Sequence record: OZ035743.1
Length of the DNA stretch: 64,000 nucleotides
Reading direction: 5' to 3' (one strand)
DNA from: Phapecoctavirus DIJ07P1
In this document: in pieces, positions 44,249 to 62,082 of the stretch
Layout: each line of letters begins with the position of its first letter
How positions within the stretch are numbered: position 1 is the first letter of the stretch
Program-made: the position numbers and the translations under genes
Notes under the pieces: generated by a model
Databases searched by the model: none
What the model was told of the DNA's origin: nothing
Seen by the model: the letters and a program-made list of their open reading frames with translations, nothing else

Positions 44249-44527
44249 TTAAAATGGTTCGTTAGTCTCCATCATATATTCTGCTTCTAGTTCTTCCATA
44301 TGCTTTCTAAATTGGAAAGCAATTTCTGCTACAGTTACATTTAAATCTTTTTCAAAAACTTCTGTAGAGCCTTCATAAAAACGAATACCGTCAATTAAAA
44401 GCCCTCCGTGGTAATCCCAATCACTTTCACGAGAAAGCGGGTTAGGCTCTTCATAATAGTAATCCACCTCCACAACTAAGGCTTTCCCGTTACGAGTGGT
44501 GTATTCAAAATCAAAAGTGTTAATCAT
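44249..44527 (-). CDS. hypothetical protein
   Basis: ORF track. Confidence 0.25.
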   Translation of the reverse strand: MINTFDFEYTTRNGKALVVEVDYYYEEPNPLSRESDWDYHGGLLIDGIRFYEGSTEVFEKDLNVTVAEIAFQFRKHMEELEAEYMMETNEPF

Positions 44528-45471
44528 TATAGCTCCTCAAATAAAAGTCTACGACGCTCATTCAACACATCAATGTGATAATGAGTCCTGACATACTTAG
44601 CTAATGCTAATCCTTTCTCCATGCAAACATTAGGAGCACTTAATAAGTATTCCGTAATATCTTTCCACTCGGAAGGTGTTTCAGCAAAGAATAACAAATC
44701 TTTAAACTCTTGTGTATGATAATTCTCACGAGGAGAACAGATCAAAGGTAAACCCTTAGCACCTGCCTCAAGAATTTTAAGATTGCTTTTTGCATTATTA
44801 AACACGTTATCAATCAATGGCGCAAGACTGATTTGATGACCATCGTAAGATTCCATGTAGTTGGCATATGGTCTTACACCTTCATAAACACAAGTTGGTG
44901 CGACATTTTCTCTGATTACAGACCATTCACGACTACTTAAAACTTCAGAATCCCTACGAAAACCACATATTGTAAGATCTTTACCAAAATCAGGCAAGAT
45001 AGCCAAATCTTGTTTATGTGTTTCACTTCCAGCCCAGACTAATGGAGTTTTGGAGTAGCGATCACGGGTCAACACAAATTGACCTTCATCGTAAGGAAGT
45101 CCATTAGGGATTATGTGCACATTATCATTGTATTGTGAAAGTTCAACTTGCAAGGCAGGTGTCGTAGTTGTAACAAGGTCACTGTGCTCTAAAAACCATT
45201 TTAAATGTTCACGAATACCTGATTCAAAAATACCTTCTAACATGTGTCCTTTTGGAATAACTAAAGAGTCATCCAAATCCATAACCATTTTAAAGCCTAG
45301 GTTTTTAAGGGCTAAAAAGCCCTCTTTACCTTTTGTTGGCACTCCGTTAAAAACGAAAACGTTGTGTTTAGGTTGTGAAGAGAACTGCCTTGAGTAAGGC
45401 AGCACTACCCTATGGAAATCGCAGACACTATAATTGATTCCGTTACGATTGTCAAGAATTATTTGTCCCAT
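44527..45471 (-). CDS. glycosyltransferase-like protein, paralog A
   Basis: paralog of the adjacent gene (shared NLKILEAGAKGLPLICS, PLVWAG, HRVVLP blocks). Confidence 0.4.
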   Translation of the reverse strand: MGQIILDNRNGINYSVCDFHRVVLPYSRQFSSQPKHNVFVFNGVPTKGKEGFLALKNLGFKMVMDLDDSLVIPKGHMLEGIFESGIREHLKWFLEHSDLVTTTTPALQVELSQYNDNVHIIPNGLPYDEGQFVLTRDRYSKTPLVWAGSETHKQDLAILPDFGKDLTICGFRRDSEVLSSREWSVIRENVAPTCVYEGVRPYANYMESYDGHQISLAPLIDNVFNNAKSNLKILEAGAKGLPLICSPRENYHTQEFKDLLFFAETPSEWKDITEYLLSAPNVCMEKGLALAKYVRTHYHIDVLNERRRLLFEEL

Positions 45472-45478
45472 ACTTCAC

Positions 45479-46426
45479 CTACAAACTTTCAATAACCTGG
45501 CGTCGCAATTCGTTTGCATCTGCTAGATTATAGTGTGTTCGAACATGTTCCGCTAAGAACAAGCCACGATCTTCCCGATAGTTTGGATTGCGAAGAAGCT
45601 TAACAATTTCGTAATGCCATTCTGCTTTGTTCTCTGCGTAAGCAACAGCACGAGCATCTACAGGGTTAAAATAAGGTAATACCTTAGAACAAACAATCGG
45701 AATACCCTTTGCTCCAGCTTCCAGGATTTTGAGATTACTTTTACAATTATTAAAATCATTATCTACCAAAGGAGCTATAGCAATAGCATGACTTTCGTAA
45801 ACACTCATGTAATTATCTAAATCTTTTACAGCAGCTTTATATTTAGCGTTTGGTAAATTTCTGCGAATCTTAATCCACTCTTGTCCCGTGATGCTCTGTG
45901 ATGCTTCATATCCCGCAATAGTAAGAAGTTCATCATCGAAAGTATTAGAGACTAGTCGTAAGTCGGGTTCGTGACTAGCACCGCCAGCCCATACAACAGG
46001 GGTACCGGATGAACGATCATTTGACAAAGTGAATTGTCCACTATCAAAAGGAAGTGCATTTCGGATCACAACAACATTCCTATTTAAGTGACGGATCTTA
46101 TATGCCAAGTATTCCGTAGTCACAATAACCACATCAGCAAGCTTAACCATAGCCACAATAGCATGAGTGTTTGACTCGTATAAACTTGCCAAATAATGCT
46201 CTGGATTAAGTTGGTAAAAATCATCTAAGTCTACAACAATCTTAACACCTTGACGTTTCAAAGATAAAACGTATTCTGCACCTTTAGAGTGGATACGGTT
46301 AAACACAACAACATCTTTCTTAGGTTGAATATTATTGTTGTTAAATGGCATAACAATACGATGATAGTCACAACCGCTGTGAGGTTTTGCATCAATTTTT
46401 AGTTTAGACCATTTTTTATTTGACAT
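45479..46426 (-). CDS. glycosyltransferase-like protein, paralog B
   Basis: same length and conserved blocks as 44527-45471 (NLKILEAGAKGIPIVCS, PVVWAG, HRIVMP). Confidence 0.4.
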   Translation of the reverse strand: MSNKKWSKLKIDAKPHSGCDYHRIVMPFNNNNIQPKKDVVVFNRIHSKGAEYVLSLKRQGVKIVVDLDDFYQLNPEHYLASLYESNTHAIVAMVKLADVVIVTTEYLAYKIRHLNRNVVVIRNALPFDSGQFTLSNDRSSGTPVVWAGGASHEPDLRLVSNTFDDELLTIAGYEASQSITGQEWIKIRRNLPNAKYKAAVKDLDNYMSVYESHAIAIAPLVDNDFNNCKSNLKILEAGAKGIPIVCSKVLPYFNPVDARAVAYAENKAEWHYEIVKLLRNPNYREDRGLFLAEHVRTHYNLADANELRRQVIESL

Positions 46427-47099
46427 GTGCTAGTGCCTCCTCATAGGAAATTCGGATTTTCCCATTTTTAATATCCTCTAAAGATGCTTTATATTCTTCC
46501 CAGTTAATCCCAATAGCAGCTTCTTTCTCTTCTTTTGTCAGATTAGCAAAAGGCATAGGATTGTTTCCAAAAACATCGTCTGGGTGGATATAAGCCATGA
46601 TACGAAGTGGACAAGGTGTTGCCTGAATACCATGATTCAAACCAGCAGCTTTCAAACGGTGTCCCCATTCGGCATCTTCAAAACCATAACCGTGAGTGTA
46701 AGGGCGGAAATAACCCATCTTCTCAACAACGGCACGAGAATACATTGCAAATTGACACATTGCAAGTTCCCAGAGAATAACTTCTCCTTTGCTTCCAACA
46801 ACTTTATCTTTGAAGTACTCCGGCATACCAAAAAAATCCCATCCTCCAGAAACAGCTTGATCTACAAAGTATGTTTCCCATCCTTCCATGACTGGGTAGC
46901 AATCATCATCAAAAATAAACCAATAATCATAACCTTCTTCATAAAACTGGTGCATAAGTTCATTCCTGGCGTAAGCTACACCTTTACGATCTGGATCGTT
47001 GAATACTCGAAAATCTGCATGTGGATCTGTTACAAGATAGTCTTTAAGTGGACGGACACCTACAGTGATAACACCCACTCCGATTTTAATATTTTCCAT
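46416..47099 (-). CDS. GT-A-type glycosyltransferase-like protein (DxD motif)
   Basis: YWFIFDDDCYP acidic motif in a beta-alpha context. Confidence 0.35.
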   Translation of the reverse strand: MENIKIGVGVITVGVRPLKDYLVTDPHADFRVFNDPDRKGVAYARNELMHQFYEEGYDYWFIFDDDCYPVMEGWETYFVDQAVSGGWDFFGMPEYFKDKVVGSKGEVILWELAMCQFAMYSRAVVEKMGYFRPYTHGYGFEDAEWGHRLKAAGLNHGIQATPCPLRIMAYIHPDDVFGNNPMPFANLTKEEKEAAIGINWEEYKASLEDIKNGKIRISYEEALAHVK

Positions 47100-47107
47100 T
47101 TTCTCTC

Positions 47108-47671
47108 CTAGATAGTTTTACTGTGATCGTGACAGTGTAATAAATGATGTATAGACCGTTGAGGATTTGTTTGACCTAATCTGTAAATGTGAAACAGATA
47201 CATTCCCCGCATCAATCCTAACCTCTTTCCTTTTTCATGTAAAGTGCGAGAGAAAATTAGGTCGAATTGGATAGATTTTTCTTCGAAAGGAATTTCATTC
47301 CACAATGATTTTCTAAAAAGCAAAAAGAAACCTGCCAGAGGTGTTCCGAAAGGAACTTCTTCAACACTCACTTTATGATATTCTCTTGCAATCTTAGCAT
47401 ATTCTATATGGTTTAGAATATCTGGATCATCGTTAATTTGGTTAGAGAAAAGCTGATAACCACTACCTAACCTGTTACAAGTTGCACCTATTACATCAAA
47501 AGGCGGGTTTGACATAACAAGCTCTTCAAGCATAGATGGTTGATCAGGCAGGAGGAACATTGTATCGGTATCTCTTAAGCACACCCAACTATCATCTGGA
47601 AGAACGGCAATAGCTTCATTGATAGCCTTGCCGATATTTCCTGTCAGATAGGGAGTAATATAATAAATCAT
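47108..47671 (-). CDS. hypothetical protein, possibly nucleotide-sugar transferase-like
   Basis: VCLRDTDTMF acidic motif; weak. Confidence 0.25.
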   Translation of the reverse strand: MIYYITPYLTGNIGKAINEAIAVLPDDSWVCLRDTDTMFLLPDQPSMLEELVMSNPPFDVIGATCNRLGSGYQLFSNQINDDPDILNHIEYAKIAREYHKVSVEEVPFGTPLAGFFLLFRKSLWNEIPFEEKSIQFDLIFSRTLHEKGKRLGLMRGMYLFHIYRLGQTNPQRSIHHLLHCHDHSKTI

Positions 47672-48993: not shown

Positions 48994-49596
48994 TTATGGA
49001 CATTCATACCATTCTTTTTTACCACCGAAGGCCATCACCACATCGCAAATATCCAGACCAGCTTTACCTACACCATATGCTTTCAGTTTCCATTCCCCAT
49101 CTTCACGAACCAAGGAAGCCACGTGGCAGATTGTGTTGCCAGCTACTTCAGGAGCCAGGAAGTCAAAATCCAGAATTTCCACATTGCGCTCGGAGTCGAA
49201 GATTTTAAGCATACCTTCAGAAGCATGACCAAAACGTTTCAGACCTGTATCATCATCAATGGTCAGAACAAAGGCAATCTCTTGTGCATCAGGAGAGATT
49301 TTAGCCAGAGTAATATCAATCTGCTCCATGCTGCCAGTTCCATCACGAACATCGTCACCAGCGAAGGTAGAACGTTCAGGATCAAACTTGTTAGCATAGC
49401 AAACCAGATGACGTGCAGACAGCATTTCAGGATTGCCAGCGGCATTGTGACGACAAACCAGTGCACTTACATCCAGATCCAGTTTAGAATCAGATTTCCA
49501 AGAGAATTCCAGGCGCAGTTCTTTCAGAGCCGGAGCAACTTTCTTCAGGGAAATTTTTTCGCTAGAGCCTTTTTTCAGGGAAATTTTATCAGTCAT
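48994..49596 (-). CDS. terD: TerD-family protein
   Basis: aligns by eye along its length to E. coli TerD (ISLKKG..ISLKK, LDLDVSA, GDDVRDGTGSMEQI, EGMLKIFD, DGEWKLKAYGVG). Confidence 0.85.
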   Translation of the reverse strand: MTDKISLKKGSSEKISLKKVAPALKELRLEFSWKSDSKLDLDVSALVCRHNAAGNPEMLSARHLVCYANKFDPERSTFAGDDVRDGTGSMEQIDITLAKISPDAQEIAFVLTIDDDTGLKRFGHASEGMLKIFDSERNVEILDFDFLAPEVAGNTICHVASLVREDGEWKLKAYGVGKAGLDICDVVMAFGGKKEWYECP

Positions 49597-49611
49597 CTTT
49601 TGTCTCCTCTA

Positions 49612-49881
49612 TTATTTAAGTGTAATACCAGTTACAGTCAATTCTACTTCCAAAAGCTTAGATGTGTTTTGGATTGATACTAATTGTGCATGATGGTTTA
49701 GTTCTACAGCAGAATAATCGTTTTCCCCATCATCTACTTTTAAATAAACAATGACTTCACTAAGGTCTAAACCATTTTCGTCAAATGCATTTTCATAGAC
49801 GAAAGTATCTCCTACATCCAAATCCTTAATGGTAAGGCATCGTTTATTTATTTTTTGCTCATCAATTTCGAAGTTTAACAC
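49612..49881 (-). CDS. small protein, paralog of 50903-51247
   Basis: shares F-I-EEK...DLGIG-TF-Y-A-ED-GLD and C-terminal V-L-VT-ITLK with the other copy. Confidence 0.35.
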   Translation of the reverse strand: MLNFEIDEQKINKRCLTIKDLDVGDTFVYENAFDENGLDLSEVIVYLKVDDGENDYSAVELNHHAQLVSIQNTSKLLEVELTVTGITLK

Positions 49882-50110
49882 TTCTTCCTCCTAATGTTAT
49901 CTCCGGTTTGTATATACGAAGAATTATAGCATTTTCATTTTCTTTGTCAACCCATTCTTCATAATCAGGCCATACATGAATCTCTACTCTACTTACAATA
50001 TCTTCCATTCGCACAGTCCCAATGAAATACTCTTTGAGACTGCGCATAATGAAAGCTTCTCTCTCGCGCCAATAATTTTCTATGACTTGAGAGGCAAGCT
50101 CGTCGATCAT
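49862..50110 (-). CDS. hypothetical small protein
   Basis: ORF track. Confidence 0.25.
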   Translation of the reverse strand: MIDELASQVIENYWREREAFIMRSLKEYFIGTVRMEDIVSRVEIHVWPDYEEWVDKENENAIILRIYKPEITLGGRSVKLRN

Positions 50111-50901
50111 TTTTTAGCACCTACTTTAACAACCCACTCTCCGAACTCTTCAGATAAGAGTTTGTCATAAAGCTCTGAATCTGTCAAGTCTAAATCTTTA
50201 ATGCCAATAAAACCAACATTATCATAAGCATTTGCCAGTTCTTTCAGGAAGCCAAACTTCTCATTACCAACGCCAACCATGAACCAATAAATAGGTTTAT
50301 TCTTATTCTCTTCAATAAGACGACGAACAGCACTAGGATCACCATTCTCACCATCCGTCTGGAAGAATACAACACCAGGGGTAACGTCAGCACCTGGTTC
50401 AGACACAGCTACAACCTTTTCACGCTCTACAGATACTGTTTCAGTTTTACCAAGCAGACGATTAAAGAAGCCTTTCTTTGGAGCCTCCTCTTGTACCACT
50501 TGTTTAGTGGTAATATATTTGGTAACAGTGCCAAAATACTCATCGTAGATATCTGCCATTACAGGGGCGTAATTTGTTCCACCTCCGATACGAACATTGC
50601 GCATACATTTACCAACATAGTCATCGTAAACGTCTGCTGTTGCTGGAGTAAGCTCTTGGGAACTCGTATTGAAGGCCCACATATCAATTTGTTGATTATC
50701 GTCGAACAGCATACCAAAAGGAAGCAGTTTACCTACAAAATCACTCACTACCCCACTAGAATATAGACCATGCATACTACCAGAAATATCTAGAGCACAT
50801 GCTACACGAAGAACAATCTTACCTTCATTCAGGTTCTTATTCTTTTTCAGAGAGAAAGCAAGGTTTTCTTGACGTTTTTTCAGGCTGATTTTCTCGGACA
50901 T
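50107..50901 (-). CDS. vWA-domain protein with TerD-like N-terminus (TerY-like)
   Basis: MIDAS motif LDISGSM, later GGGTNYAP and FFQTDGENGD; N-terminus ISLKK...SLKK resembles TerD start. Confidence 0.6.
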   Translation of the reverse strand: MSEKISLKKRQENLAFSLKKNKNLNEGKIVLRVACALDISGSMHGLYSSGVVSDFVGKLLPFGMLFDDNQQIDMWAFNTSSQELTPATADVYDDYVGKCMRNVRIGGGTNYAPVMADIYDEYFGTVTKYITTKQVVQEEAPKKGFFNRLLGKTETVSVEREKVVAVSEPGADVTPGVVFFQTDGENGDPSAVRRLIEENKNKPIYWFMVGVGNEKFGFLKELANAYDNVGFIGIKDLDLTDSELYDKLLSEEFGEWVVKVGAKK

Positions 50902-50902
50902 A

Positions 50903-51247
50903 TTATTTCTCCTTCTTAAGTGTAATATTGGTAACTTCTAAATCTACTTCCACCATATTTGTATCTGGCGGGATGCAATGAGTATAGCCTCGTTGTGCTA
51001 GTGATCCATTAATACAGATCGCACTGTTTGTGGAATTTTTAATGAACACCAAGTTACGGTAGGTATCCAACCCTGCGTCTTCATAGGCATCATAATACAT
51101 GAATGTGGCCCCTATGCCAAGATCTTCGAAAGCAATAGGTAAATCCTGACTTTTTTCTTCTTGAATATTGAATCTAAACACGCATACCTCCTCTACCAAT
51201 TTTGAAGCCCAAATCGTAAGCTTCCTTAGTGATCTTTTGTAACTCAC
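50903..51247 (-). CDS. small protein, paralog of 49612-49881 (likely GTG start near 51181)
   Basis: paralogy; GGAGG precedes GTG that overlaps the upstream stop. Confidence 0.35.
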   Translation of the reverse strand: MSYKRSLRKLTIWASKLVEEVCVFRFNIQEEKSQDLPIAFEDLGIGATFMYYDAYEDAGLDTYRNLVFIKNSTNSAICINGSLAQRGYTHCIPPDTNMVEVDLEVTNITLKKEK

Positions 51248-51737
51248 TTATAGGAAGTGTTACAAGAGGATCATCTTCTTCAATTTCCATCTTGTCATCT
51301 TCTGTTTCAATGAGAGTATTATGCACTTTGTGATAAGGGTTGTCAACACGTTTAAACTTATTCTTTTCTGTGCTGAAAAAACAATCTGGATCTTCTTCAC
51401 CATCACCCCAACCTTGGTTAGGATCTCCGTCAGATTGTTCTGTAGGGATTTCACCTGTAAAATACTCTTCCAGCACCATAGCGATACCGTCCCTTGGATT
51501 TGAGGAATGCATCAAATCACAAACCTTACTCCAATCCATAGCCCATTCGAATCGTTCGCGAACACCATTTTCATCCTCCTTTCCAGAGAAAACACAACCA
51601 TAACTATCATAGTTGCCATACATCTCTTCAATAACAACACCGTCCTTCAAAAGAAAGAGGTAGCAAGGTGATCCGTCGAAAGAAGTAGAAAGGGCAGCTT
51701 TGCCCGATTCTTTGCACAAAAAACTAAAACAACCCAT
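51174..51737 (-). CDS. acidic hypothetical protein
   Basis: ORF track. Confidence 0.3.
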   Translation of the reverse strand: MGCFSFLCKESGKAALSTSFDGSPCYLFLLKDGVVIEEMYGNYDSYGCVFSGKEDENGVRERFEWAMDWSKVCDLMHSSNPRDGIAMVLEEYFTGEIPTEQSDGDPNQGWGDGEEDPDCFFSTEKNKFKRVDNPYHKVHNTLIETEDDKMEIEEDDPLVTLPISELQKITKEAYDLGFKIGRGGMRV

Positions 51738-51940
51738 TACAAACCCTCCTTCAGATTATCAAGAGCTACAGTGGTTTCACAAAATTCTCCATAAGCTTTA
51801 TGATGTTCCAGAAAAGCTTCGGGTCCACCCCAGTCATTATCTTGTGTATTCCAACCATCAATAAAAGCATCTTCAATGATTGTGATCAGTTCTTGTCGGG
51901 TTAACTGGATAATATTAGGATCGTTATCGTAGTTAAACAT
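51737..51940 (-). CDS. hypothetical small protein
   Basis: ORF track. Confidence 0.2.
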   Translation of the reverse strand: MFNYDNDPNIIQLTRQELITIIEDAFIDGWNTQDNDWGGPEAFLEHHKAYGEFCETTVALDNLKEGL

Positions 51941-52105
51941 CTTCTTCCTCCTCTAAAATATGAAACCCGTAATTACAATAGTCCTGAAAGGTTTCGTGCG
52001 CAAGATCTTCTATATCCTCTTGAGACATATCATCTTCAATTTCGATATCCACAACCTCATTGCATCCACACCAAGCAGTTTCAATATTCACTCGTAATAT
52101 TTTCA

Positions 52106-52303
52106 TTACTCCTCCTCCTCATTGAAGTCAATATCTGCAAGGAGTTGGAATTTACGGAAGTTACGACAACCTTCATAAATATAACAATCACGACAAACTG
52201 CTAGAACACTTGGGGGATATATGCCTCCCATCGGTGCGAATCGTTTTTCGTCATCATAACGGACACCAATGTCTTCATCAATTATATAGATACGGATTCT
52301 CAT
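52106..52303 (-). CDS. small Cys-containing protein
   Basis: ORF track. Confidence 0.2.
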   Translation of the reverse strand: MRIRIYIIDEDIGVRYDDEKRFAPMGGIYPPSVLAVCRDCYIYEGCRNFRKFQLLADIDFNEEEE

Positions 52304-53412
52304 TTACCAAGCCCTCGTTTCACAGCAGCTACCATCCCGTCTTCCAAAGATTGAACTTCATTAATATAATCAACACGAGCAGCACGGGCTTCCGTATTGA
52401 TGCGGTTAGTTTCTTCCAACATCTTAACCAAGTTTTCCTGATCGTGACGCAGAGTTTCAATATCCAACACTTGACGGTTAGCCAGTGCTGCTGCTTCGAT
52501 CTGATTCTGTGTGGCAAGATCGCTACCCAGTTTAATTGCCAGGTTAAATTCATCAAGAACGTTATTCTGCGTCTCTGCTGCTTTCATTTGACGTAAGCTC
52601 TCGATATACATTGAGAAGTTAGCAGAGTAAGCAGGAATAACATTATTTACTATGTTACGCGCAGATCGCATTAAGCTTGCAGAAACTTTTTGCATACCTT
52701 GTACACGCGGTCCCATTTGGACACACAGTAGGCGCAATGCTTTTAAATCTGCAATACGAATCTCCAGAAGATCCAAAGTATCTCGGATCACTTGTCGCTG
52801 TTCTACTGCATCTTCTGGAAGAGCAGCCAAAGCTTGTTCTTCTTTTTCATAGGTTGCTGTTAGAAGCTGCATATCTCGGTTCAAACTTGCAGCATATTGT
52901 CCAATAGCTTGATGTAGCTTTTCAAGATATACCAAGGAATCTTCTTCTTTGCGAATATCCATTTGAAGGTTTTTTACCAACTCTTCAATACGGTTATTAA
53001 CATTATCAAACTCCCCAAACAGATCTTCTTTCATACCCATAACTTTTTTAATGAGTTTAGTAATACCCTTGCTTTGTTTAATAGAGTTTGGATCAAGTTG
53101 TTTTGCCTGTTTAATCAAAGCTGTGAGTCGTTCACTCATCTGATCGCCTTGATTACTACGTTGATGTTTTAATACCTCGGCATTCAAGGAACGCAAGGTT
53201 GTTCCTGCCTCTGCTCCAATCTCTTCGATCTCCTGTCGGGTCATAGAAGGCAAAACTGGAACTTCTTGCGGTGCCGCTGGTGCATAAACAGGACTGGCAT
53301 CTAACACGCTTGGAGCGAATACAGATTTACTTGCATCTGTTGTTGCAGCAAATACGCTCATTTCAGGTTTCTTCTGACAGCCAGTAGCTGCTTTTAAAAA
53401 TGGACTTGTCAT
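52300..53412 (-). CDS. TelA-like toxic-anion-resistance family protein (tentative)
   Basis: 370 aa, all-helical, size and Ter neighbourhood consistent with TelA/KlaB; no motif check possible. Confidence 0.35.
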   Translation of the reverse strand: MTSPFLKAATGCQKKPEMSVFAATTDASKSVFAPSVLDASPVYAPAAPQEVPVLPSMTRQEIEEIGAEAGTTLRSLNAEVLKHQRSNQGDQMSERLTALIKQAKQLDPNSIKQSKGITKLIKKVMGMKEDLFGEFDNVNNRIEELVKNLQMDIRKEEDSLVYLEKLHQAIGQYAASLNRDMQLLTATYEKEEQALAALPEDAVEQRQVIRDTLDLLEIRIADLKALRLLCVQMGPRVQGMQKVSASLMRSARNIVNNVIPAYSANFSMYIESLRQMKAAETQNNVLDEFNLAIKLGSDLATQNQIEAAALANRQVLDIETLRHDQENLVKMLEETNRINTEARAARVDYINEVQSLEDGMVAAVKRGLGK

Positions 53413-53999
53413 TCTTCATTCTCCTCTTCTGCATCTCTTATATATGGTGAAACACCGTACTCTTTAGCTACTTTAACCCAATCGTCCCATTTATACAACC
53501 ATAATTTTCCTTCGGTCCCTTCTTTATCTGATTTCAACCACATATTAGGTTGCTTACCTGGGTACATGCGATTAGGTTTACGATTATAACCTCTAACACA
53601 TCTTGTCGCAAACCTATCTACCAGAACAAGAACATATTTATATTCGTGGTTCAACGGCTCTTTGGAAGTGGCTTTAGGATTAGCCCCTAACTCTGCTGCC
53701 AGTTTTTGCCAATGAGCACCGTGTCTACTAAACTTACCCATACAACCATCAATAGCATGAGCAATTTCGTGCTTCATTGTATCCACGATCATATCTCTTG
53801 TAGAGTTCTTATGCAAGTGCCAATTTACAACAACAATTTTATCTCGGTAGTTGCACCAACCGAAAGAGTTATTCACTTTGTTTCTAACACAAGCTTTATA
53901 TCCTGCTTCACGTAACATGTTGTAGTAAACAGGAAAATCTTCTTTTATTTCCTGCATCACTTCCCACCACAAGAGTTGCAAGTCTCTCTCGGTATACAT
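53409..53999 (-). CDS. SprT-like zinc metalloprotease
   Basis: MKHEIAHAIDG...HGAHW (HExxH plus downstream His/Trp). Confidence 0.55.
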   Translation of the reverse strand: MYTERDLQLLWWEVMQEIKEDFPVYYNMLREAGYKACVRNKVNNSFGWCNYRDKIVVVNWHLHKNSTRDMIVDTMKHEIAHAIDGCMGKFSRHGAHWQKLAAELGANPKATSKEPLNHEYKYVLVLVDRFATRCVRGYNRKPNRMYPGKQPNMWLKSDKEGTEGKLWLYKWDDWVKVAKEYGVSPYIRDAEEENEE

Positions 54000-54002
54000 A
54001 AC

Positions 54003-54596
54003 TTACACCTTAAAAGTGAAATGCGTGGTCGTGGTTTCAAAATCAGGACCAGATAAACGTGCACTGAAATCTGAAATATTTGTAATTAAAAAGCTTTTAT
54101 GCATACCTAACACAGCTACGCTTTCAATATCTTCTACTAACATTTCAATCATGTTAGAAACATGGCTGAACGTAGAGTTTTGTTTTTTGATGGTGTAGAA
54201 AGAAAGATTCCCACCTGCTGTATAAGATACCTCTTCAAAATCTTTAATGGTATATTGTGTGCCATCAGTAAAGAAAATGGTAGCTTTATTAGTAGCACGT
54301 TTCTTGTTTTTTGGTCCTTTTTTACGTTTACTGCGAGTAGGCAAACCGTTTGGGAACACCATAGCTACAAATTCTTCAGCAGAAACCTCCTTACCGAAAT
54401 CATAACCATAAGAAACAGCGTCTATAAACTCGTCATCTTCATTTTTAAAATAATGGAAATAGGGCCAATTTGAGAGATTATCGAGCATCTTATGCTCATC
54501 CACAGCAGAGAACGTATCCCTCAAAGCACGTGTGATTTGCAAAGCATTAGGCAAACTTTTAACACCTGTAATGGAAGTACGAATAGAAATTGTCAT
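54003..54596 (-). CDS. hypothetical protein
   Basis: ORF track. Confidence 0.3.
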   Translation of the reverse strand: MTISIRTSITGVKSLPNALQITRALRDTFSAVDEHKMLDNLSNWPYFHYFKNEDDEFIDAVSYGYDFGKEVSAEEFVAMVFPNGLPTRSKRKKGPKNKKRATNKATIFFTDGTQYTIKDFEEVSYTAGGNLSFYTIKKQNSTFSHVSNMIEMLVEDIESVAVLGMHKSFLITNISDFSARLSGPDFETTTTHFTFKV

Positions 54597-54610
54597 TGTT
54601 TTTCTCCTTA

Positions 54611-55048
54611 TTAACGTCGCTTGCTACGAGATGAACTCTTTTTACTTAAAGGGCTATTGTAAGATTTACGAGTTGTATAGCTACTATTTGTTTTAAAAGT
54701 TTGTCTCGGCTTTTCATAAGTTTTTATCTCTTGTTTAGGCTTACTATAAAAATTAGTTTTCGGTTTAGGTGTATTATAATGTTTATTAATAATCGTTCTG
54801 TTATCGTTATAATCCCCACTGCTACGATTACTACCGCCACTCATCATATGCCCTAACAACATACCTGTAGCAAACTCACCAACACCGTTACTACTAGAAC
54901 CGCCACCATTGTTGATAATAGTTGTATCTCCGTCAGATCCTTGTTGAGCGTATTGTTGAGGAGGTTGTTGGTATTGTGCAGGATTTGTTTCATCCTCGCA
55001 AGCTGTTAAAAAGATACAACCAATTAAAATCAGGGCTAGTTTTTTCAT
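54611..55048 (-). CDS. lipoprotein (start at internal Met)
   Basis: MKKLALILIGCIFLTAC lipobox; Q/G-rich middle, basic C-terminus. Confidence 0.45.
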   Translation of the reverse strand: MKKLALILIGCIFLTACEDETNPAQYQQPPQQYAQQGSDGDTTIINNGGGSSSNGVGEFATGMLLGHMMSGGSNRSSGDYNDNRTIINKHYNTPKPKTNFYSKPKQEIKTYEKPRQTFKTNSSYTTRKSYNSPLSKKSSSRSKRR

Positions 55049-55231
55049 ATTTGCTTTCCTCGTTTTGGCTATTAATACATCTGTGTTTGAAATCTCCAGA
55101 GAAGCAATAAAGTTGCTCTCCATCTCGGTATAAACTCACTTTACTGCCGTTGATTACGCTTGTCAATACAAAAATTACAACAAACAACCCTATTGCAAAA
55201 CAAATATTTTCAAACACAACCAACAAGTATT

Positions 55232-55582
55232 TCATTTTAAAAATACCTCATCATCAGTTTCATTATCCCAGAAGAACAAGTCCCAACCATTCGGATCATT
55301 CCATTTAGCTGCTGGAGAAGTCCATATTTGCTCGATATCAATATTCAAAACTTCACCGTTTCGTTTTGAAACAGCTTTAGTTAATTCCCAACGGGATACA
55401 GGCTCCACTTCCCCTGAACCACTCCCACAACAAGCTACCACATTAGGAGGCAAATTAATTGGATCTTTGGTCACGATCATAACGCTTACCCCAGGGTAAA
55501 CTTTTGAAAGATAATCTAAAACGTAATCCACATCACCAGATAAATCCCAAACAAGTTCTTGAATTTCATCAAAATTATTCAT
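55232..55582 (-). CDS. hypothetical protein
   Basis: ORF track, RBS AGGAGAG. Confidence 0.3.
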   Translation of the reverse strand: MNNFDEIQELVWDLSGDVDYVLDYLSKVYPGVSVMIVTKDPINLPPNVVACCGSGSGEVEPVSRWELTKAVSKRNGEVLNIDIEQIWTSPAAKWNDPNGWDLFFWDNETDDEVFLK

Positions 55583-55592
55583 AAGTCTCTCC

Positions 55593-55618
55593 TATAAAAT
55601 AGCCTCCCGAAGGAGGCT
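55593..55618 (-). terminator. intrinsic terminator after terC (minus strand)
   Basis: AGCCTCC-TTCG-GGAGGCT followed by ATTTTAT on minus strand. Confidence 0.6.
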
Positions 55619-55624
55619 CATCTA

Positions 55625-56599
55625 TTAAACAGAAGCTTCTTCTTTTTCAGGGAAGATAAAGCTTGCAATAACACCAAGAGATAATGTGCCTAGAACAATC
55701 ATCAGACTTACGTTAGGGGAAATATCATGCGGGAGGAATGACCACTTGGCATGAAGTGTTTCACCGAACGGGTGATACATAAGTTTAGCACCAACAAACA
55801 CCAGAACCACAGCAACAGCTTTCTCTAAGTGAACCAGATATTTCACAGCTACACTTAACACAAAGAAAAGTGCACGTAAACCAAGAACAGCCATCAGCAT
55901 TGCAGAATAAACTAGCAGAGGTTCTTGTGTCACACCGATCACAGCCGGAACTGAATCAAAAGAGAAGACAATATCTGTAAGCTCAATAACAAACACACAA
56001 AGAAGAGCAGGAGTTGCATATTTAATACCATTCTTAATGGTGATGAACTTTTCACCATCCAGTGCATTGTGCACAGGCAGAACTTTACCTACTAAACGAA
56101 CAGCCCAATGTTTAGAGTAATCAATATCCTCTTCTTCGTCACCACCTTTGATGATAGCCACGGCAGACCAAGCTACAATCAAACCGAACAACACTTGGAC
56201 CGACCAATGAAGGTTAAACAAAGCGGTCCCTGCTGCAACAAAAATACCTCGGAAGACAATGGCTCCTGCAATCCCCCAAAGTAGAATCTTATGTTGGAGA
56301 TGTGTGCTCTTAATTCCAAAGCTTGCAAAAATTGCCATGAACACCATTAGGTTATCTACAGAAAGACTCTTTTCCAACACATAGCCACTTAGGAAAAGCG
56401 CGGCAAACTCTTTACCATGTTCTACCCAAATGAATGCGTAATACCCTAAAGCTAAAGCAATCCAAAAAACAGACCAAAGCAAAGCAGATTTAATTCCAAT
56501 TTCTTTATTCTCTTTATGACCAAAGAAATCGATACCAATAGACAATGCCAAAATACCAACTAAAACAACTACATCAATAATTGGGAAACCGAGTTGCAT
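55625..56599 (-). CDS. terC: TerC-family integral membrane protein
   Basis: multi-pass membrane protein with LSGYVLEKSLSVDNLMVF family signature. Confidence 0.8.
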   Translation of the reverse strand: MQLGFPIIDVVVLVGILALSIGIDFFGHKENKEIGIKSALLWSVFWIALALGYYAFIWVEHGKEFAALFLSGYVLEKSLSVDNLMVFMAIFASFGIKSTHLQHKILLWGIAGAIVFRGIFVAAGTALFNLHWSVQVLFGLIVAWSAVAIIKGGDEEEDIDYSKHWAVRLVGKVLPVHNALDGEKFITIKNGIKYATPALLCVFVIELTDIVFSFDSVPAVIGVTQEPLLVYSAMLMAVLGLRALFFVLSVAVKYLVHLEKAVAVVLVFVGAKLMYHPFGETLHAKWSFLPHDISPNVSLMIVLGTLSLGVIASFIFPEKEEASV

Positions 56600-56649
56600 T
56601 CTTTTCTCCTCTCTCTGCGGGGGAACTATTCCCCCGCTTCATGTGATAT

Positions 56650-56677
56650 ATCTTACTCTTTTTAAGAACTATGTCAA
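56650..56677 (-). promoter_or_regulatory. sigma70-like promoter TTGACA-N16-TAAGAT upstream of terC (minus strand)
   Basis: -35 at 56677-56672, -10 at 56655-56650; GC hairpin 56616-56637 in the leader. Confidence 0.45.
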
Positions 56678-56680
56678 CAC

Positions 56681-56902
56681 TTATTTTGTTGAATGAGAGG
56701 AAAAGATTCCTCGTAATACCGCCAGAATAAACGAAACACAAACCACGGTCCAGAAGGTTACTGGGACAGTGATATCTGCATGACCCATAACTTCAGCAAC
56801 ATAGTTGTAAGCCAGCAACAGTAACCAAGCTGGAATCAAACTAAGCATAAAAGCAATAACAAAAAAGCTTACCACTGCAACAATACCTGCAAAAACACCC
56901 AT
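56681..56902 (-). CDS. small multi-TM membrane protein
   Basis: 73 aa, two to three hydrophobic segments. Confidence 0.3.
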   Translation of the reverse strand: MGVFAGIVAVVSFFVIAFMLSLIPAWLLLLAYNYVAEVMGHADITVPVTFWTVVCVSFILAVLRGIFSSHSTK

Positions 56903-56914
56903 ACTAATCTCCTC

Positions 56915-57454
56915 TTAAAGTTTATAAATAGTCACATCGTGACCTGTTTTTACTAAAGTTTCTTCAATCATCACTTGGATGATAGCCCAATTACCTCCAG
57001 CATATCCAGCGCCAATCATAGGTAAGCCGATCTTACATTTTTGGTCACGGAGAAGCAAATCATTAGCCATAGCTATTAGTGCATCGTAAAGTGCATCATA
57101 GTCCAACTGACGACCTTTAGCATTGTATCCGTAACGGTATTGCCCGTATAGATTATATACCAAAGGGTCTGATTGTTCGTCTGGCACCCCTAAACTAAAA
57201 GAACCTAACTTACTTTGATCACCAGCCATTGTGTCTAAATCTGCCGCATATGCATAAGGGAATGCTCGTTTAATTTGCGGAGCAATTCCTGCTCCCATAT
57301 TACACATACAATTGCAACAATGAGCAATAACAGTTACTTCACCTGCTTTAGCGGCATCAATAAGATTACCTGTTTTCATTTTAAGCATTTTTAGCTCCTT
57401 ATTACAGAATGTGTTGTTTTGTGTAACGATCCAAGAATTCAAAGTTTTCAGCAT
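56915..57454 (-). CDS. macro-domain protein (ADP-ribose binding/processing)
   Basis: GNLIDAAKAGEVTVIAHCCNC..MGAGIAPQIKRAFP and GLPMIGAGYAGGNW resemble MacroD motifs; start probably internal Met. Confidence 0.5.
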   Translation of the reverse strand: MLKTLNSWIVTQNNTFCNKELKMLKMKTGNLIDAAKAGEVTVIAHCCNCMCNMGAGIAPQIKRAFPYAYAADLDTMAGDQSKLGSFSLGVPDEQSDPLVYNLYGQYRYGYNAKGRQLDYDALYDALIAMANDLLLRDQKCKIGLPMIGAGYAGGNWAIIQVMIEETLVKTGHDVTIYKL

Positions 57455-58229
57455 ACTTTGAAATTCGGTTGTAACCTTCTCCCAAACATCCGAAGAAAAG
57501 TTGCTCTACATAGTAGTGTGGCAATTGGCTAAGAATGATTTTGAAGTCTTCGTGATTTTGGCCCATAAGATACTTAATAGGACGAACAAGACACTGTGCA
57601 TCACGTTCTTCATTAATCATTTTAACAAACGCTTCTGGTGTATTGATGTAGTTAAAATTCAGTTTAGCTTCAGTATCTGCTTGATTACCTTCATATTTTG
57701 CAAAATACAAGAAGTAAACATCATTTTTAACTTGATTTTCATCAAGAATCTCAATCAGTTTGTCTTCATGAGTTCCGGTGATATTTACATCATCAATGAA
57801 CACAAGCTTCTTATCACCCCAGAATTCTTTGTTGCAGTAGAATGTATCCCCATCAATAAGTTTCTTACGACTAGCTTTATCCAAGAAACCATAATCGTTG
57901 ATATAGCTAACTTTACGATGAATAATATCCAGTTCTGCTGAACGACCTTGATCATATTGTGCTTGCAACATATTAAAGTAATTAATAAAATGATCTGTCA
58001 TCATTGTTGCAGCATTGTGCACATGGTTATAAGGAGAAGGGATGATAACAAATTGTTCCCCAATATGTTTCATTGCCACTTGAGCAAAAAACTGAAGTGC
58101 CAATTCTTTACCCATACGACGCGCAGCTTGGTTACTACCAAATTTCAATTTTGAATAGTCTTTGATATCAAAAGTAGCAGTTTCCAGGTCATCAAATTTA
58201 TTTGCAAAAATTTGAGTTTGATTACGCAT
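57402..58229 (-). CDS. type I phosphoribosyltransferase
   Basis: PRPP-binding motif KKLVFIDDVNITGTHE. Confidence 0.6.
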   Translation of the reverse strand: MRNQTQIFANKFDDLETATFDIKDYSKLKFGSNQAARRMGKELALQFFAQVAMKHIGEQFVIIPSPYNHVHNAATMMTDHFINYFNMLQAQYDQGRSAELDIIHRKVSYINDYGFLDKASRKKLIDGDTFYCNKEFWGDKKLVFIDDVNITGTHEDKLIEILDENQVKNDVYFLYFAKYEGNQADTEAKLNFNYINTPEAFVKMINEERDAQCLVRPIKYLMGQNHEDFKIILSQLPHYYVEQLFFGCLGEGYNRISKYAENFEFLDRYTKQHIL

Positions 58230-58899
58230 TTACAATTTCTCCTCTTTTAAGTTTCTCTAGTAAGTCGTTAGGGTTCTTAATATGACAGAAGTTAATCCCT
58301 ATGTCAACACATTTACCATCAAATTCTTCGCTGTCCCCAACATGTAAAATCTCTTCAGCCTTCAAAGGAATGCTTGAATATGTGGCGGTCCTAACAAAGA
58401 ATCTAGGATCTGGTTTACATAACAGATGTTCGTCTGAAAAATGCATAAATTCAAAACAATTCCAACTGTCGAACATACAAGCACGACGCAAAATATCCCC
58501 AGATATAAAATTAGTATTGCTTTTAATACTAAGATCATATTTACCAGACAAGTATAGCAAACAAACTGGCAAATCTAAAGCGATATGTGGAGGAAATTTA
58601 AGAAACCATTGCTCACACTCAAAACGCATTTGTGCAGATTCTACAGGGGTTAAACCTATCTTTCTTCCCAACATATTCCATGCATATGCTACACCTTCTG
58701 CACACCCATTTAGTGCAGCATTATCCATAATTTCTTTGGCATCTTTATATGCTTCTTTTGCCGCACGTTCAGACATTCTACCATATGTAGCAATAGTGTG
58801 CGTACGTGCATCTGCATAGTTTTGATTGGCAGAAATAAGAGTATTCCATACATCAAAAGAAATATGTTTTATTGTCATACTAGGCCCACCACGCATCAA
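58222..58899 (-). CDS. HAD-superfamily hydrolase
   Basis: motif I ISFDVWNTL, motif III CKPDPRFF, motif IV HVGDSEEFD. Confidence 0.6.
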   Translation of the reverse strand: MMRGGPSMTIKHISFDVWNTLISANQNYADARTHTIATYGRMSERAAKEAYKDAKEIMDNAALNGCAEGVAYAWNMLGRKIGLTPVESAQMRFECEQWFLKFPPHIALDLPVCLLYLSGKYDLSIKSNTNFISGDILRRACMFDSWNCFEFMHFSDEHLLCKPDPRFFVRTATYSSIPLKAEEILHVGDSEEFDGKCVDIGINFCHIKNPNDLLEKLKRGEIVNA

Positions 58900-59485
58900 G
58901 ATTTAAGTTACTGTCTACCACAACTTGTTCTATGTGGTAGCCTTTTATCTGTATCCCACTGTTCAAGAGCATATCATACGCTTCATTGAAACGCAACTTA
59001 TCTTCTGCGGAATATAAGCGAGCATTATAAAATCGGTAATCAATTTCTTCAGCATTAGAAGAAATACGGAAGAAGTTTGTTTCTACTTCGGGATCACTTG
59101 CTGAAGTCTTAATGTGAACTTCTCCATAATTTTCTTTACTTAGATCCATGAAAAGAACACAGGCAACATGTTTAAACATTCGTTCCAGTTTGTAACGAAC
59201 AACATTGAAACCTGCATTCTCAAGTTTTTCTACACACTGCAACATTAAAGTAGTGTCGAGATCGCTTTGATACTTTGTTAACATACGATCACGTTGAGAC
59301 TTTGTATCCCGATGTAAATCAATTGTTGTGCATTTGGCACCAATAATCTTAGCTGCTTTCATCAACTCTTCAGAACTAACGTTAGATAAAGTAAGATGAA
59401 AATGGGCTTTCCACACTTTTTTAGCAGGGACACCAAAAGATTTATCCCCACTATTCGGCATGTTGACTACTACACTATGTTGCAT
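58880..59485 (-). CDS. hypothetical protein
   Basis: ORF track. Confidence 0.3.
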   Translation of the reverse strand: MQHSVVVNMPNSGDKSFGVPAKKVWKAHFHLTLSNVSSEELMKAAKIIGAKCTTIDLHRDTKSQRDRMLTKYQSDLDTTLMLQCVEKLENAGFNVVRYKLERMFKHVACVLFMDLSKENYGEVHIKTSASDPEVETNFFRISSNAEEIDYRFYNARLYSAEDKLRFNEAYDMLLNSGIQIKGYHIEQVVVDSNLNLDAWWA

Positions 59486-59500
59486 TACTTATCTCCTCAC

Positions 59501-59725
59501 TTAAAATGGAAGTCTTTGAAGTTCATCTCCTCCAATATCAAGTAATTTAGCAACATCTCGATCAGAAAGCAACTCTTTTCTTTGTAAAATATCCACAAGG
59601 GTTGCAAGAATCTCCTTAACGTCCCGATCACTGTTCTTCAACAGTTCTCCTGCCGTCCCTACTCTATCTCCTACAGCAAAATATGTAACCATGAAACCTC
59701 CTAAGTTAATCTGATTGCCAACCAC
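59501..59725 (-). CDS. hypothetical small protein
   Basis: ORF track. Confidence 0.2.
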   Translation of the reverse strand: MVGNQINLGGFMVTYFAVGDRVGTAGELLKNSDRDVKEILATLVDILQRKELLSDRDVAKLLDIGGDELQRLPF

Positions 59726-60176
59726 TTGCCGTTTTGGTCCATAATCTTTGATTATCTGACCCTCTGAAAGGTTTTGTAGTTGGATTGTTTATTTCGTACT
59801 TTCCGTCTACAATAATGTCAATAAGATTTTTAATATACAAAGGCACTTCCTCAAAAGTATATCCTGTATACACCATTATATCTTTGCTTGACCCATAAAC
59901 GTCTCTAACCTTTTCTATAAGGCTTTTAACATTGTGAATATTCTGCGGATCTAATGGTTCTCCTCCTAAAATTGTTAAACCTTTTACAAATGGTCTTGAC
60001 AAATCTTTTAAAACTTGCTCTACATTTTCGTCAGTAAACGGTTTCCCATAAGAATAAGACCAGGCTTTTTGGTTAAAACAGCCACGACAACCGTGGCTAC
60101 AACCACTAACCCAGAGGGAGCACCTAACTCCCTCACCATTAATAAGATCTACAGGTTCATATCCTGCAAAATTCAA
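59706..60176 (-). CDS. nrdG: anaerobic ribonucleotide reductase activating protein
   Basis: radical-SAM cluster motif CSHGCRGC near N-terminus; 156 aa; downstream of nrdD. Confidence 0.8.
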   Translation of the reverse strand: MNFAGYEPVDLINGEGVRCSLWVSGCSHGCRGCFNQKAWSYSYGKPFTDENVEQVLKDLSRPFVKGLTILGGEPLDPQNIHNVKSLIEKVRDVYGSSKDIMVYTGYTFEEVPLYIKNLIDIIVDGKYEINNPTTKPFRGSDNQRLWTKTASGWQSD

Positions 60177-62054: not shown

Positions 62055-62082
62055 AATCAAAAAAGGCGCAAAGTGCGCCTTT
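62055..62082 (-). terminator. intrinsic terminator (minus strand)
   Basis: AGGCGCA-CTT-TGCGCCT followed by TTTTTTGATTT on minus strand. Confidence 0.55.

Follow-up and report, generated by a model that had tools for sequence, protein, structure and literature searches.

The bacteriophage Phapecoctavirus DIJ07P1 (sequence record OZ035743.1) was analysed over a stretch of 64,000 nucleotides, called the window in the following. The genes under study lie back to back on its minus strand and encode a hydrolase of the haloacid dehalogenase (HAD) superfamily, a type I phosphoribosyltransferase (PRTase) and a stand-alone macro domain. The phage is classed as Phapecoctavirus (Stephanstirmvirinae), is phAPEC8/ESCO13-like and has E. 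coli as its host. Positions 55200-59800 of the window share 99.6% identity with Escherichia phage vB_EcoM-Ro121lw and 99.5% with ESCO13, both members of Phapecoctavirus, and relatives of the Ro121lw/ESCO13 type carry annotations of the same genes. All three open reading frames are present and conserved where an earlier note on this DNA had placed them, and the family assignments made there are correct, as seen from Pfam, PHROG and PDB matches and from HAD motifs I-IV. The features of the three genes are as follows.

58222..58878, minus strand: HAD-IA hydrolase, 218 aa from the ATG at 58878; the longest open reading frame reaches to a TTG at 58899
58840..58854, minus strand: codons of HAD motif I (DVWNT), which aligns as D-x-W-x-T
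57402..58229, minus strand: type I phosphoribosyltransferase of the PRTase_3 (ComF-like) family, 275 aa
57765..57806, minus strand: codons of the phosphoribosyl pyrophosphate (PRPP)-binding loop of the PRTase, LVFIDDVNITGTHE, residues 142-155
56915..57388, minus strand: stand-alone macro domain, 157 aa, ALC1/TARG1-like class, SCO6735/T4 Tk.4 (AdfM) type

The three genes had been described as overlapping, which holds for the HAD and PRTase genes only. These share 8 nucleotides (ATGCGTAA), the start codon of the PRTase gene overlapping the stop codon of the HAD gene. The longest open reading frame of the macro gene spans 56915-57454, but its start is most likely the ATG at 57388, which lies behind an AAGGAG Shine-Dalgarno sequence and 13 nucleotides past the PRTase stop; the PRTase and macro genes are therefore without overlap. 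The HAD gene most likely starts at the ATG at 58878, 1 nucleotide past the stop of the gene upstream.

The PRTase matches the Pfam family PRTase_3 (PF15610) over profile positions 9-264 of 264, with 144.2 bits against a cut-off of 28.7 (E 6e-42), and phrog_13415 with E 2e-161. PF15610 was presumably defined from the 2012 analysis of the Ter (tellurite-resistance) systems. The loop LVFIDDVNITGTHE displays the hydrophobic run, the two acidic residues and the T/S-G-x-T signature of PRPP-binding loops, and its residues D146, D147, T151, G152, T153, H154 and E155 do not vary across 56 homologues; other invariant columns are a K29-F30-G31 motif and residues of the C-terminal third. The PRTase fold is likewise recovered in an AlphaFold (AF2) model built from 56 sequences, with a predicted local distance difference test (pLDDT) score of 93.7. 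The intact and invariant loop agrees with the earlier suggestion of a PRPP-dependent transferase, and we consider it likely that the protein is an active PRPP-using enzyme.

Behind the catalytic core the PRTase carries a helical C-terminal domain with invariant residues of its own (R216, K219, E251 and Y253). We infer that these approximately 90 residues are family-specific, and they may form the acceptor site. Helicobacter pylori ComFC (PDB 7p0h) and the classical type I enzymes HGXPRT, UPRT, OPRT and PurF share only about 9-17% identity with the phage protein, which differs from them also by this additional domain. A sequence search for solved structures of the PRTase returned none. This is a family of modest size: out of 1.84 billion representatives, a profile search retrieved 860 clusters at E <=1e-3, 255 of them at E <=1e-30. 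Identity between the coliphage PRTase and those of Xanthomonas and metagenomic jumbo phages is 45-56%. Some proteins contain two or three PRTase_3 domains in tandem (538-1153 aa).

The HAD protein scores 19.5 bits against Pfam PF00702, under the cut-off of 26.4, and many of its homologues carry this domain; matches to the HAD-IA models TIGR02252 and TIGR02253 are weak, and phrog_14393 is matched with E 9e-121. In an alignment of 25 sequences, comprising partners from phages, rhizobia, Bacteroidales and actinobacteria, the residues D9, T13, R25, S120, N121, K155, P156, H179, G181, D182 and D187 are invariant. Motif I reads FDVWNTL (D9-V-W11-N-T13) and includes the nucleophilic Asp and the conserved Thr; motif II (S120), motif III (K155) and motif IV (G181-D182...D187) are in place as well, so that motifs I-IV of a Mg-dependent phosphoryl-transfer HAD are, judging from the alignment, intact. 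The second position after the nucleophile, at which phosphatases have an Asp as general acid/base, is occupied by Trp in at least 90% of the 25 homologues and in 13 of 13 HAD-PRTase fusion proteins. The unusual motif I remarked on in the earlier note is thus real, and DxW is a family-wide trait. The replacement of Asp by Trp across the family makes simple phosphatase chemistry uncertain, and a suspicion of unusual HAD chemistry is reasonable.

The sole solved relative of the HAD that was found by sequence is PH0253 of Pyrococcus horikoshii (PDB 2om6, a 'probable phosphoserine phosphatase'), in which motif I is identical (FDVWNTL). Both PH0253 and the REG-2-like HAD-IA proteins (TIGR02252) share with the phage protein the HAD-IA architecture, in which a cap separates motif I from motif II. 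However, the overall similarity of PH0253 is weak (E 4e-5), and it has no known PRTase pairing.

The conservation of gene order provides insight into the relationship between the two enzymes. We collected 48 loci with a PRTase gene from IMG/VR, GTDB genomes, GenBank phages, plasmids and metagenome contigs and scanned them with iteratively built hidden Markov models. The loci span the Stephanstirmvirinae and at least 12 other phage lineages (55-350 kb), plasmids of Rhizobiaceae, metagenome-assembled genomes (MAGs) of Bacteroidales and candidate phyla, and one actinobacterium, and in 47 of them the HAD gene lies directly 5' of the PRTase_3 gene. The 150 best family representatives include 13 HAD(DxWxT)-PRTase_3 fusions with the HAD at the N-terminus, PRTase_3 at the C-terminus and an intact PRPP loop (fusion/multi-domain set: P0253, P0276, P0295, P0303, P0307, P0327, P0350, P0354, P0359, P0368, P0377, P0378, P0250). 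When the phage HAD was used as query against 72,556 plasmids, only PRTase-partnered HADs were retrieved, and in plasmids of Rhizobiaceae the HAD-PRTase pair forms a stand-alone two-gene unit. The gene fusions make consecutive or coupled action of the two proteins very likely, and a functional coupling of HAD and PRTase is the most secure of our functional conclusions, held with high confidence. Gene order and fusions also fit the previously suggested division of labour, in which the PRTase would add ribose-5-phosphate and the HAD would handle the phosphate.

Some variants of this arrangement were observed in addition. One fusion protein has the order PRTase-HAD-PRTase. Large conjugative plasmids of Rhizobium and Sinorhizobium carry the HAD-PRTase unit in isolation (L045, 8346-9819; L046, 8370-9840), and in pRL10 it is located near repA with no Ter genes nearby.

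The distribution of the macro domain differs markedly from that of the pair. Its homologues occur in 2,981 phage records versus 156 for the PRTase, i.e., about 19 times more. The macro gene stands beside the PRTase gene only in Stephanstirmvirinae, lies 6-8 kb away from it in two other phages, and is absent from the loci elsewhere. It is outside the conserved HAD-PRTase unit. The earlier note had proposed that all three genes constitute a short pathway that produces or removes a ribosylated compound; the part concerning HAD and PRTase fits their strong coupling, while the inclusion of the macro domain is not supported.

The family membership of the macro domain leads in the same direction. The match to Pfam Macro (PF01661) is marginal (23.0 bits, cut-off 22), that to phrog_335 has E 1e-55. 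The best PDB match is 5e3b (SCO6735, E 5e-13), followed by 2fg1 (BT1257), 4j5q (TARG1) and 5m31 (DarG). Among phage proteins, Tk.4 of T4 belongs to the same PHROG 335 and shares 37% identity (E 1e-21); its gene, tk.4, is located between vs and tk.3. According to a 2025 preprint, tk.4 is the only gene that T4 requires on hosts with DarTG2, and its product has been named AdfM, anti-DarTG2 factor (bioRxiv 10.1101/2025.11.20.689424). SCO6735 of Streptomyces coelicolor removes thymidine-linked ADP-ribose from DNA and rescues cells from DarT; it does so without the catalytic Lys and Asp of TARG1 and DarG, and its Gln85 is essential (PMC9411070).

Both Tk.4/AdfM and SCO6735 resemble the phage protein in being stand-alone macro domains of the ALC1/TARG1 class of approximately 155 aa. 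In the alignment, Gln83 of the phage protein (157-aa numbering) occupies the position of Gln85, which is essential in SCO6735 (NLYGQ versus NMIGQ in SCO6735 and NLYTQ in Tk.4), and the two Gly-rich diphosphate loops, MGAGIA and IGAGYAGG, are conserved as well. A difference from SCO6735 is that Lys34 and Lys89, which are proposed to bind DNA, are not kept in a pairwise alignment. DarG, the antitoxin of DarTG2, and human TARG1 share the fold with the phage protein (PADLOC DarG model E 4e-10; PDB 5m31 and 4j5q E ~2e-6). In contrast to DarG, the phage protein scores only 33.7 bits against NCBIfam NF048014 (cut-off 250; model positions 2-147 of 338) and is without the DarT-binding C-terminal domain. 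It also has neither the catalytic Lys (DarG K80, TARG1 K84) nor the catalytic Asp (TARG1 D125): the ITKKR segment of TARG1 aligns with YGQYR, so that both Lys positions are taken by other residues, and the GCGLD loop corresponds to GAGYA in the phage protein (residue roles according to PMC9411070).

We interpret the macro domain as probably a DNA/protein ADP-ribosylhydrolase of the AdfM type, based on these alignments. The use of orphan antitoxin-like ADP-ribosylhydrolases in phage counter-defence is established for NADAR proteins acting against DarTG1 (PMC11825919). The characterised relatives of the phage protein are DNA ADP-ribosyl-hydrolases that counter DarT (PMC9411070; bioRxiv 10.1101/2025.11.20.689424), which argues against the macro domain as a member of a small-molecule pathway. 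In about 3,000 phage genomes this gene is labelled "phosphatase"; the product is probably an anti-DarT2 DNA de-ADP-ribosylase, which would amount to a correction of the annotation.

The main functional clue to the HAD-PRTase pair, absent from the earlier note, comes from the surrounding genes, of which the following are relevant here.

58880..59485, minus strand: o201, conserved protein upstream of the HAD, 1 nucleotide from the HAD start
56681..56902, minus strand: o73, small hydrophobic (probably membrane) protein of 73 aa between the macro gene and terC
55625..56599, minus strand: integral membrane protein of the TerC/Alx family (TIGR03718, 318 bits, cut-off 246)
55601..55618, minus strand: intrinsic-terminator-like hairpin AGCCTCCTTCGGGAGGCT with a T-rich tail, directly after terC
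52300..53412, minus strand: TelA-family protein (PF05816, 116 bits)
50107..50901, minus strand: vWA-TerF-like protein (PF10138, 130 bits)
48994..49596, minus strand: TerD-domain protein (PF02342, 99 bits)

All four Ter components, TerD, TerC, TelA and vWA-TerF, are present in the window within the same gene block, and terC lies within the same terminator-bounded unit as the HAD-PRTase pair. The bounds of this unit are the hairpin at 55601-55618 and a perfect 9-bp, GC-rich hairpin at 62062-62082 upstream of nrdD (AAAGGCGCA...TGCGCCTTT), which has the form of a terminator on either strand; the two hairpins bracket the gene block from nrdD to terC. From about 62.08 kb down to the strong hairpin at 55618-55601, the minus strand shows no terminator-like hairpin other than a weak site within the coding region of nrdG, and for this reason nrdD-nrdG-o74-o201-HAD-PRTase-macro-o73-terC is a probable unit with terC as its last gene. 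Conservation of o73 is limited to Stephanstirmvirinae, and o201 is no conserved partner of HAD and PRTase. The region 48994-56599 (minus strand) as a whole holds a fairly complete Ter set with a TerC of the Alx type, and a gene for an SprT-like metallopeptidase overlaps telA by 4 nucleotides.

The association with Ter genes is not confined to this phage. When all neighbours in 26 diverse loci were clustered, the only recurrent ones besides the HAD were TerD (10 loci), TerC (8), vWA-TerF (7) and TelA (6). Ter genes stand beside the pair in six phage lineages and three bacterial groups (Bacteroidales, candidate-phyla MAGs and an actinobacterium), and two of the fusion proteins (L053, L056) have TerD, TerC or vWA-TerF as neighbours.

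Ter operons are widespread in pathogens and have been tied for decades to resistance against phages, colicins and metals. Iyer, Anantharaman, Krishnan, Burroughs and Aravind (Viruses 2021, 13:63; PMC7824862) describe TerB and TerD as the ligand-binding parts, TerC as the membrane part, and TelA and TerF-vWA as sub-membrane parts of the system, and report phage-borne versions in Acinetobacter phage ME3 and in 'smaller tailed phages'. A 'nucleoside-like metabolite' as the product of Ter-associated enzymes goes back to Anantharaman, Iyer & Aravind (2012, Mol Biosyst 8:3142), as it is cited in PMC8115787 and PMC7824862. Aravind and co-workers predicted a nucleoside- or nucleotide-derived Ter signal that is sensed by TerD-type proteins, and for phage Ter systems a membrane-linked exclusion of rival phages or protection against stress. 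The HAD-PRTase pair and its Ter link were thus already predicted in 2012 and 2021, and are of a kind known by computation. The phage locus resembles the predicted biosynthetic module in that genes for a PRTase and a HAD phosphoesterase are linked to TerD, TerC, TelA and vWA-TerF. It differs from the classical bacterial module in having one PRTase and one HAD, with no ATP-grasp or C-C lyase among the open reading frames scanned, and the phage-type pair is also found without Ter genes nearby.

From these observations we favour the view, with a probability of about 50%, that two functionally separate things lie at this locus, a HAD-PRTase cassette (57402-58878) and an independent macro gene (56915-57388). 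In the cassette, the PRTase would most likely use PRPP to ribosylate a base-like acceptor and release a riboside 5'-phosphate, a step suggested by the intact PRPP loop and the fold. The HAD would then act on the phosphorylated product, in the simplest case by taking off the 5'-phosphate, or else another phosphoryl group, so that a nucleoside-like molecule is set free. This dephosphorylation is the weakest step because the general acid/base Asp is a Trp family-wide, and we give even odds to the HAD being the 5'-phosphatase of the PRTase product. The cassette would constitute the biosynthetic arm of the phage-borne Ter system made up of TerC, TelA, vWA-TerF and TerD. That the product of the pair works with the Ter proteins in this phage is a tentative proposal, to which we assign slightly less than an even chance. 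The macro domain, as an accessory protein of the T4 Tk.4/AdfM family, would most likely strip ADP-ribose from thymidine in DNA, possibly also from Glu/Asp of proteins, and would serve as an orphan DarG-like antitoxin against defence of the DarTG2 type.

A comparable sequence of reactions is found in toyocamycin biosynthesis, where ToyH reportedly joins a base with PRPP to a nucleotide, from which the HAD phosphatase ToyI is said to free the nucleoside. The logic of a PRTase followed by a phosphatase would be the same in the phage pair, but there is no demonstrated homology past the superfamily level, and base-synthesis genes do not accompany the pair in this phage.

If the proposed role in the Ter system is true, the product of a minimal phage cassette would be the long-sought Ter metabolite. 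This phage family carries the smallest form of the predicted Ter biosynthetic arm, reduced to two small soluble proteins that are naturally fused in some organisms. With approximately 50% identity between the cassette proteins of enterobacterial and jumbo phages, the cassette would offer a tractable way in to the Ter metabolite.

Several observations weigh against this interpretation in one or the other of its parts. About half of the pair-carrying lineages have no Ter gene within 8-10 kb. These comprise at least six other phage lineages, the Caulobacter jumbo phages, Rhizobium phages and all rhizobial plasmids; T4-like and jumbo phages are among them. It follows that the cassette is able to function in the absence of Ter proteins, whose link to it may reflect just one of several uses. 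Neither ATP-grasp or C-C lyase genes nor multiple PRTases were found among the open reading frames scanned between 44.5 and 60.2 kb. A product, an acceptor base or an activity has been reported for no PRTase_3 or DxW-HAD protein, which leaves the pathway a prediction; our literature search likewise returned no experiments on PRTase_3 or phage-borne Ter genes. The Trp at the Asp+2 position of the HAD speaks against an ordinary phosphatase. For the macro domain, the AdfM assignment draws on one preprint and 37% identity, and in all Stephanstirmvirinae loci examined the macro gene comes immediately after the PRTase gene, so a functional tie to the pair that is specific to this subfamily is conceivable.

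Some of the Ter-less loci have other neighbours. In T4-like and jumbo phages without Ter genes, a large protein of 467-531 aa adjoins the pair (L004, 8967-10562; L006, 5152-6555; L048, 10941-12527), with Pfam matches to DUF2828 and DUF7788 in L004 and L006 and a length of 528 aa in L048. An RNA ligase gene is also close to the pair in these loci. The DUF2828/DUF7788 protein and the RNA ligase may represent an alternative partner system. The PRTases and HADs of enterobacterial ter plasmids were considered as further homologues and rejected: tblastn against the 72,556 plasmids yielded only pairs from Rhizobiaceae and one from Hymenobacter, and the ter clusters of the R478 type are therefore not close relatives at this sensitivity.

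Among the alternatives, it is possible, albeit doubtful, that the two enzymes of the DxW-HAD/PRTase_3 pair suffice, as a mobile unit, to generate a non-canonical nucleoside or nucleotide. Phages, plasmids and bacteria would deploy it when mobile elements come into conflict, whether Ter proteins are present or not, and the HAD with Trp in place of Asp would catalyse a reaction other than simple 5'-dephosphorylation.

We regard as unlikely a Ter-independent role in counter-defence, by which the pair would rebuild a metabolite depleted by host immunity, or make or consume a nucleotide-derived immune signal or decoy. The pair is indeed flanked by two antitoxin-like accessory genes, the DarG-like macro gene and o201; the latter matches PADLOC 'AbiEi' models and has a distant homologue beside genes for Acb1 and NADAR. 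A NADAR gene is also found on a phage-like contig with a fusion protein, and many phages possess the pair without Ter genes. Yet the bacterial homologues on chromosomes and plasmids lie in Ter clusters or alone, which is atypical of anti-defence genes. The pair belongs to no known anti-defence family, and no known defence system has a signal or target that fits this chemistry; in PADLOC, the PRTase, the HAD and all of the Ter proteins remained without a match. A role in the reconstitution of NAD+, in the manner of the NARP1/2 systems, was prompted by a Nudix gene following the pair in Rhizobium phages and was rejected, as this association is not recurrent. To our knowledge, the known NAD-salvage PRTases have a fold different from that of PRTase_3.

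Ordinary nucleotide salvage, in which the two genes would be auxiliary metabolic genes, the PRTase turning a standard base into a nucleotide for phage replication and the HAD trimming the nucleotide pools, is likewise improbable. The position just downstream of nrdD/nrdG in this phage would suit such a function, as would the genes near the pair in other phages, which encode a thymidine kinase, a Nudix protein (annotated as nicotinamide mononucleotide adenylyltransferase/Nudix) and PurA, and many GenBank records label the PRTase an 'orotate phosphoribosyltransferase'. A phosphatase fused to a salvage enzyme, however, would undo the salvage. The invariant C-terminal helical domain is a property of this PRTase family itself, the recurrent link is to Ter genes and not to genes of nucleotide metabolism, and rhizobial plasmids carry the pair on its own.

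A pathway of three enzymes, in which a single small molecule of the ribosylated or ADP-ribose type would pass through the PRTase, the HAD and the macro domain in turn, is very unlikely: it would account for the tight, co-directional packing of the genes without a terminator between them and for the constant position of the macro gene in Stephanstirmvirinae, but the gene neighbours the pair in no other phage lineage or bacterial locus, its family has a far wider distribution in phages than the PRTase, the substrates of the characterised family members are ADP-ribosylated DNA or protein, and a Pfam scan of 10 longer multi-domain representatives revealed no macro fusion while fusions to the HAD are common.

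Apart from these questions, some database records and further genes of the window deserve mention. PRTases with 99.6% protein identity to the one described here are found in MG065650.1, labelled 'Campylobacter phage', and in OP562383.1, labelled 'Acinetobacter phage', and an identical one (100%) is encoded on contig JAEZZU010000022.1 of a Proteobacteria MAG (GTDB, L024); the match in MG065656.1 (64.7%) is at a level typical of related E. coli phages. The host labels or the binning of MG065650.1, MG065656.1, MG065682.1, OP562383.1 and JAEZZU010000022.1 are probably wrong. At 44527-47671 of the window (minus strand), four consecutive open reading frames are glycosyltransferase-like, one of which matches the TET-associated glycosyltransferase model weakly (19 bits, under the cut-off). 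In the record of a PD06-like phage (L007, 5177-7296), nrdD is divided into two open reading frames, whereas it is intact in the near-identical L011; this split may be due to a frameshift, a sequencing error or an insertion.

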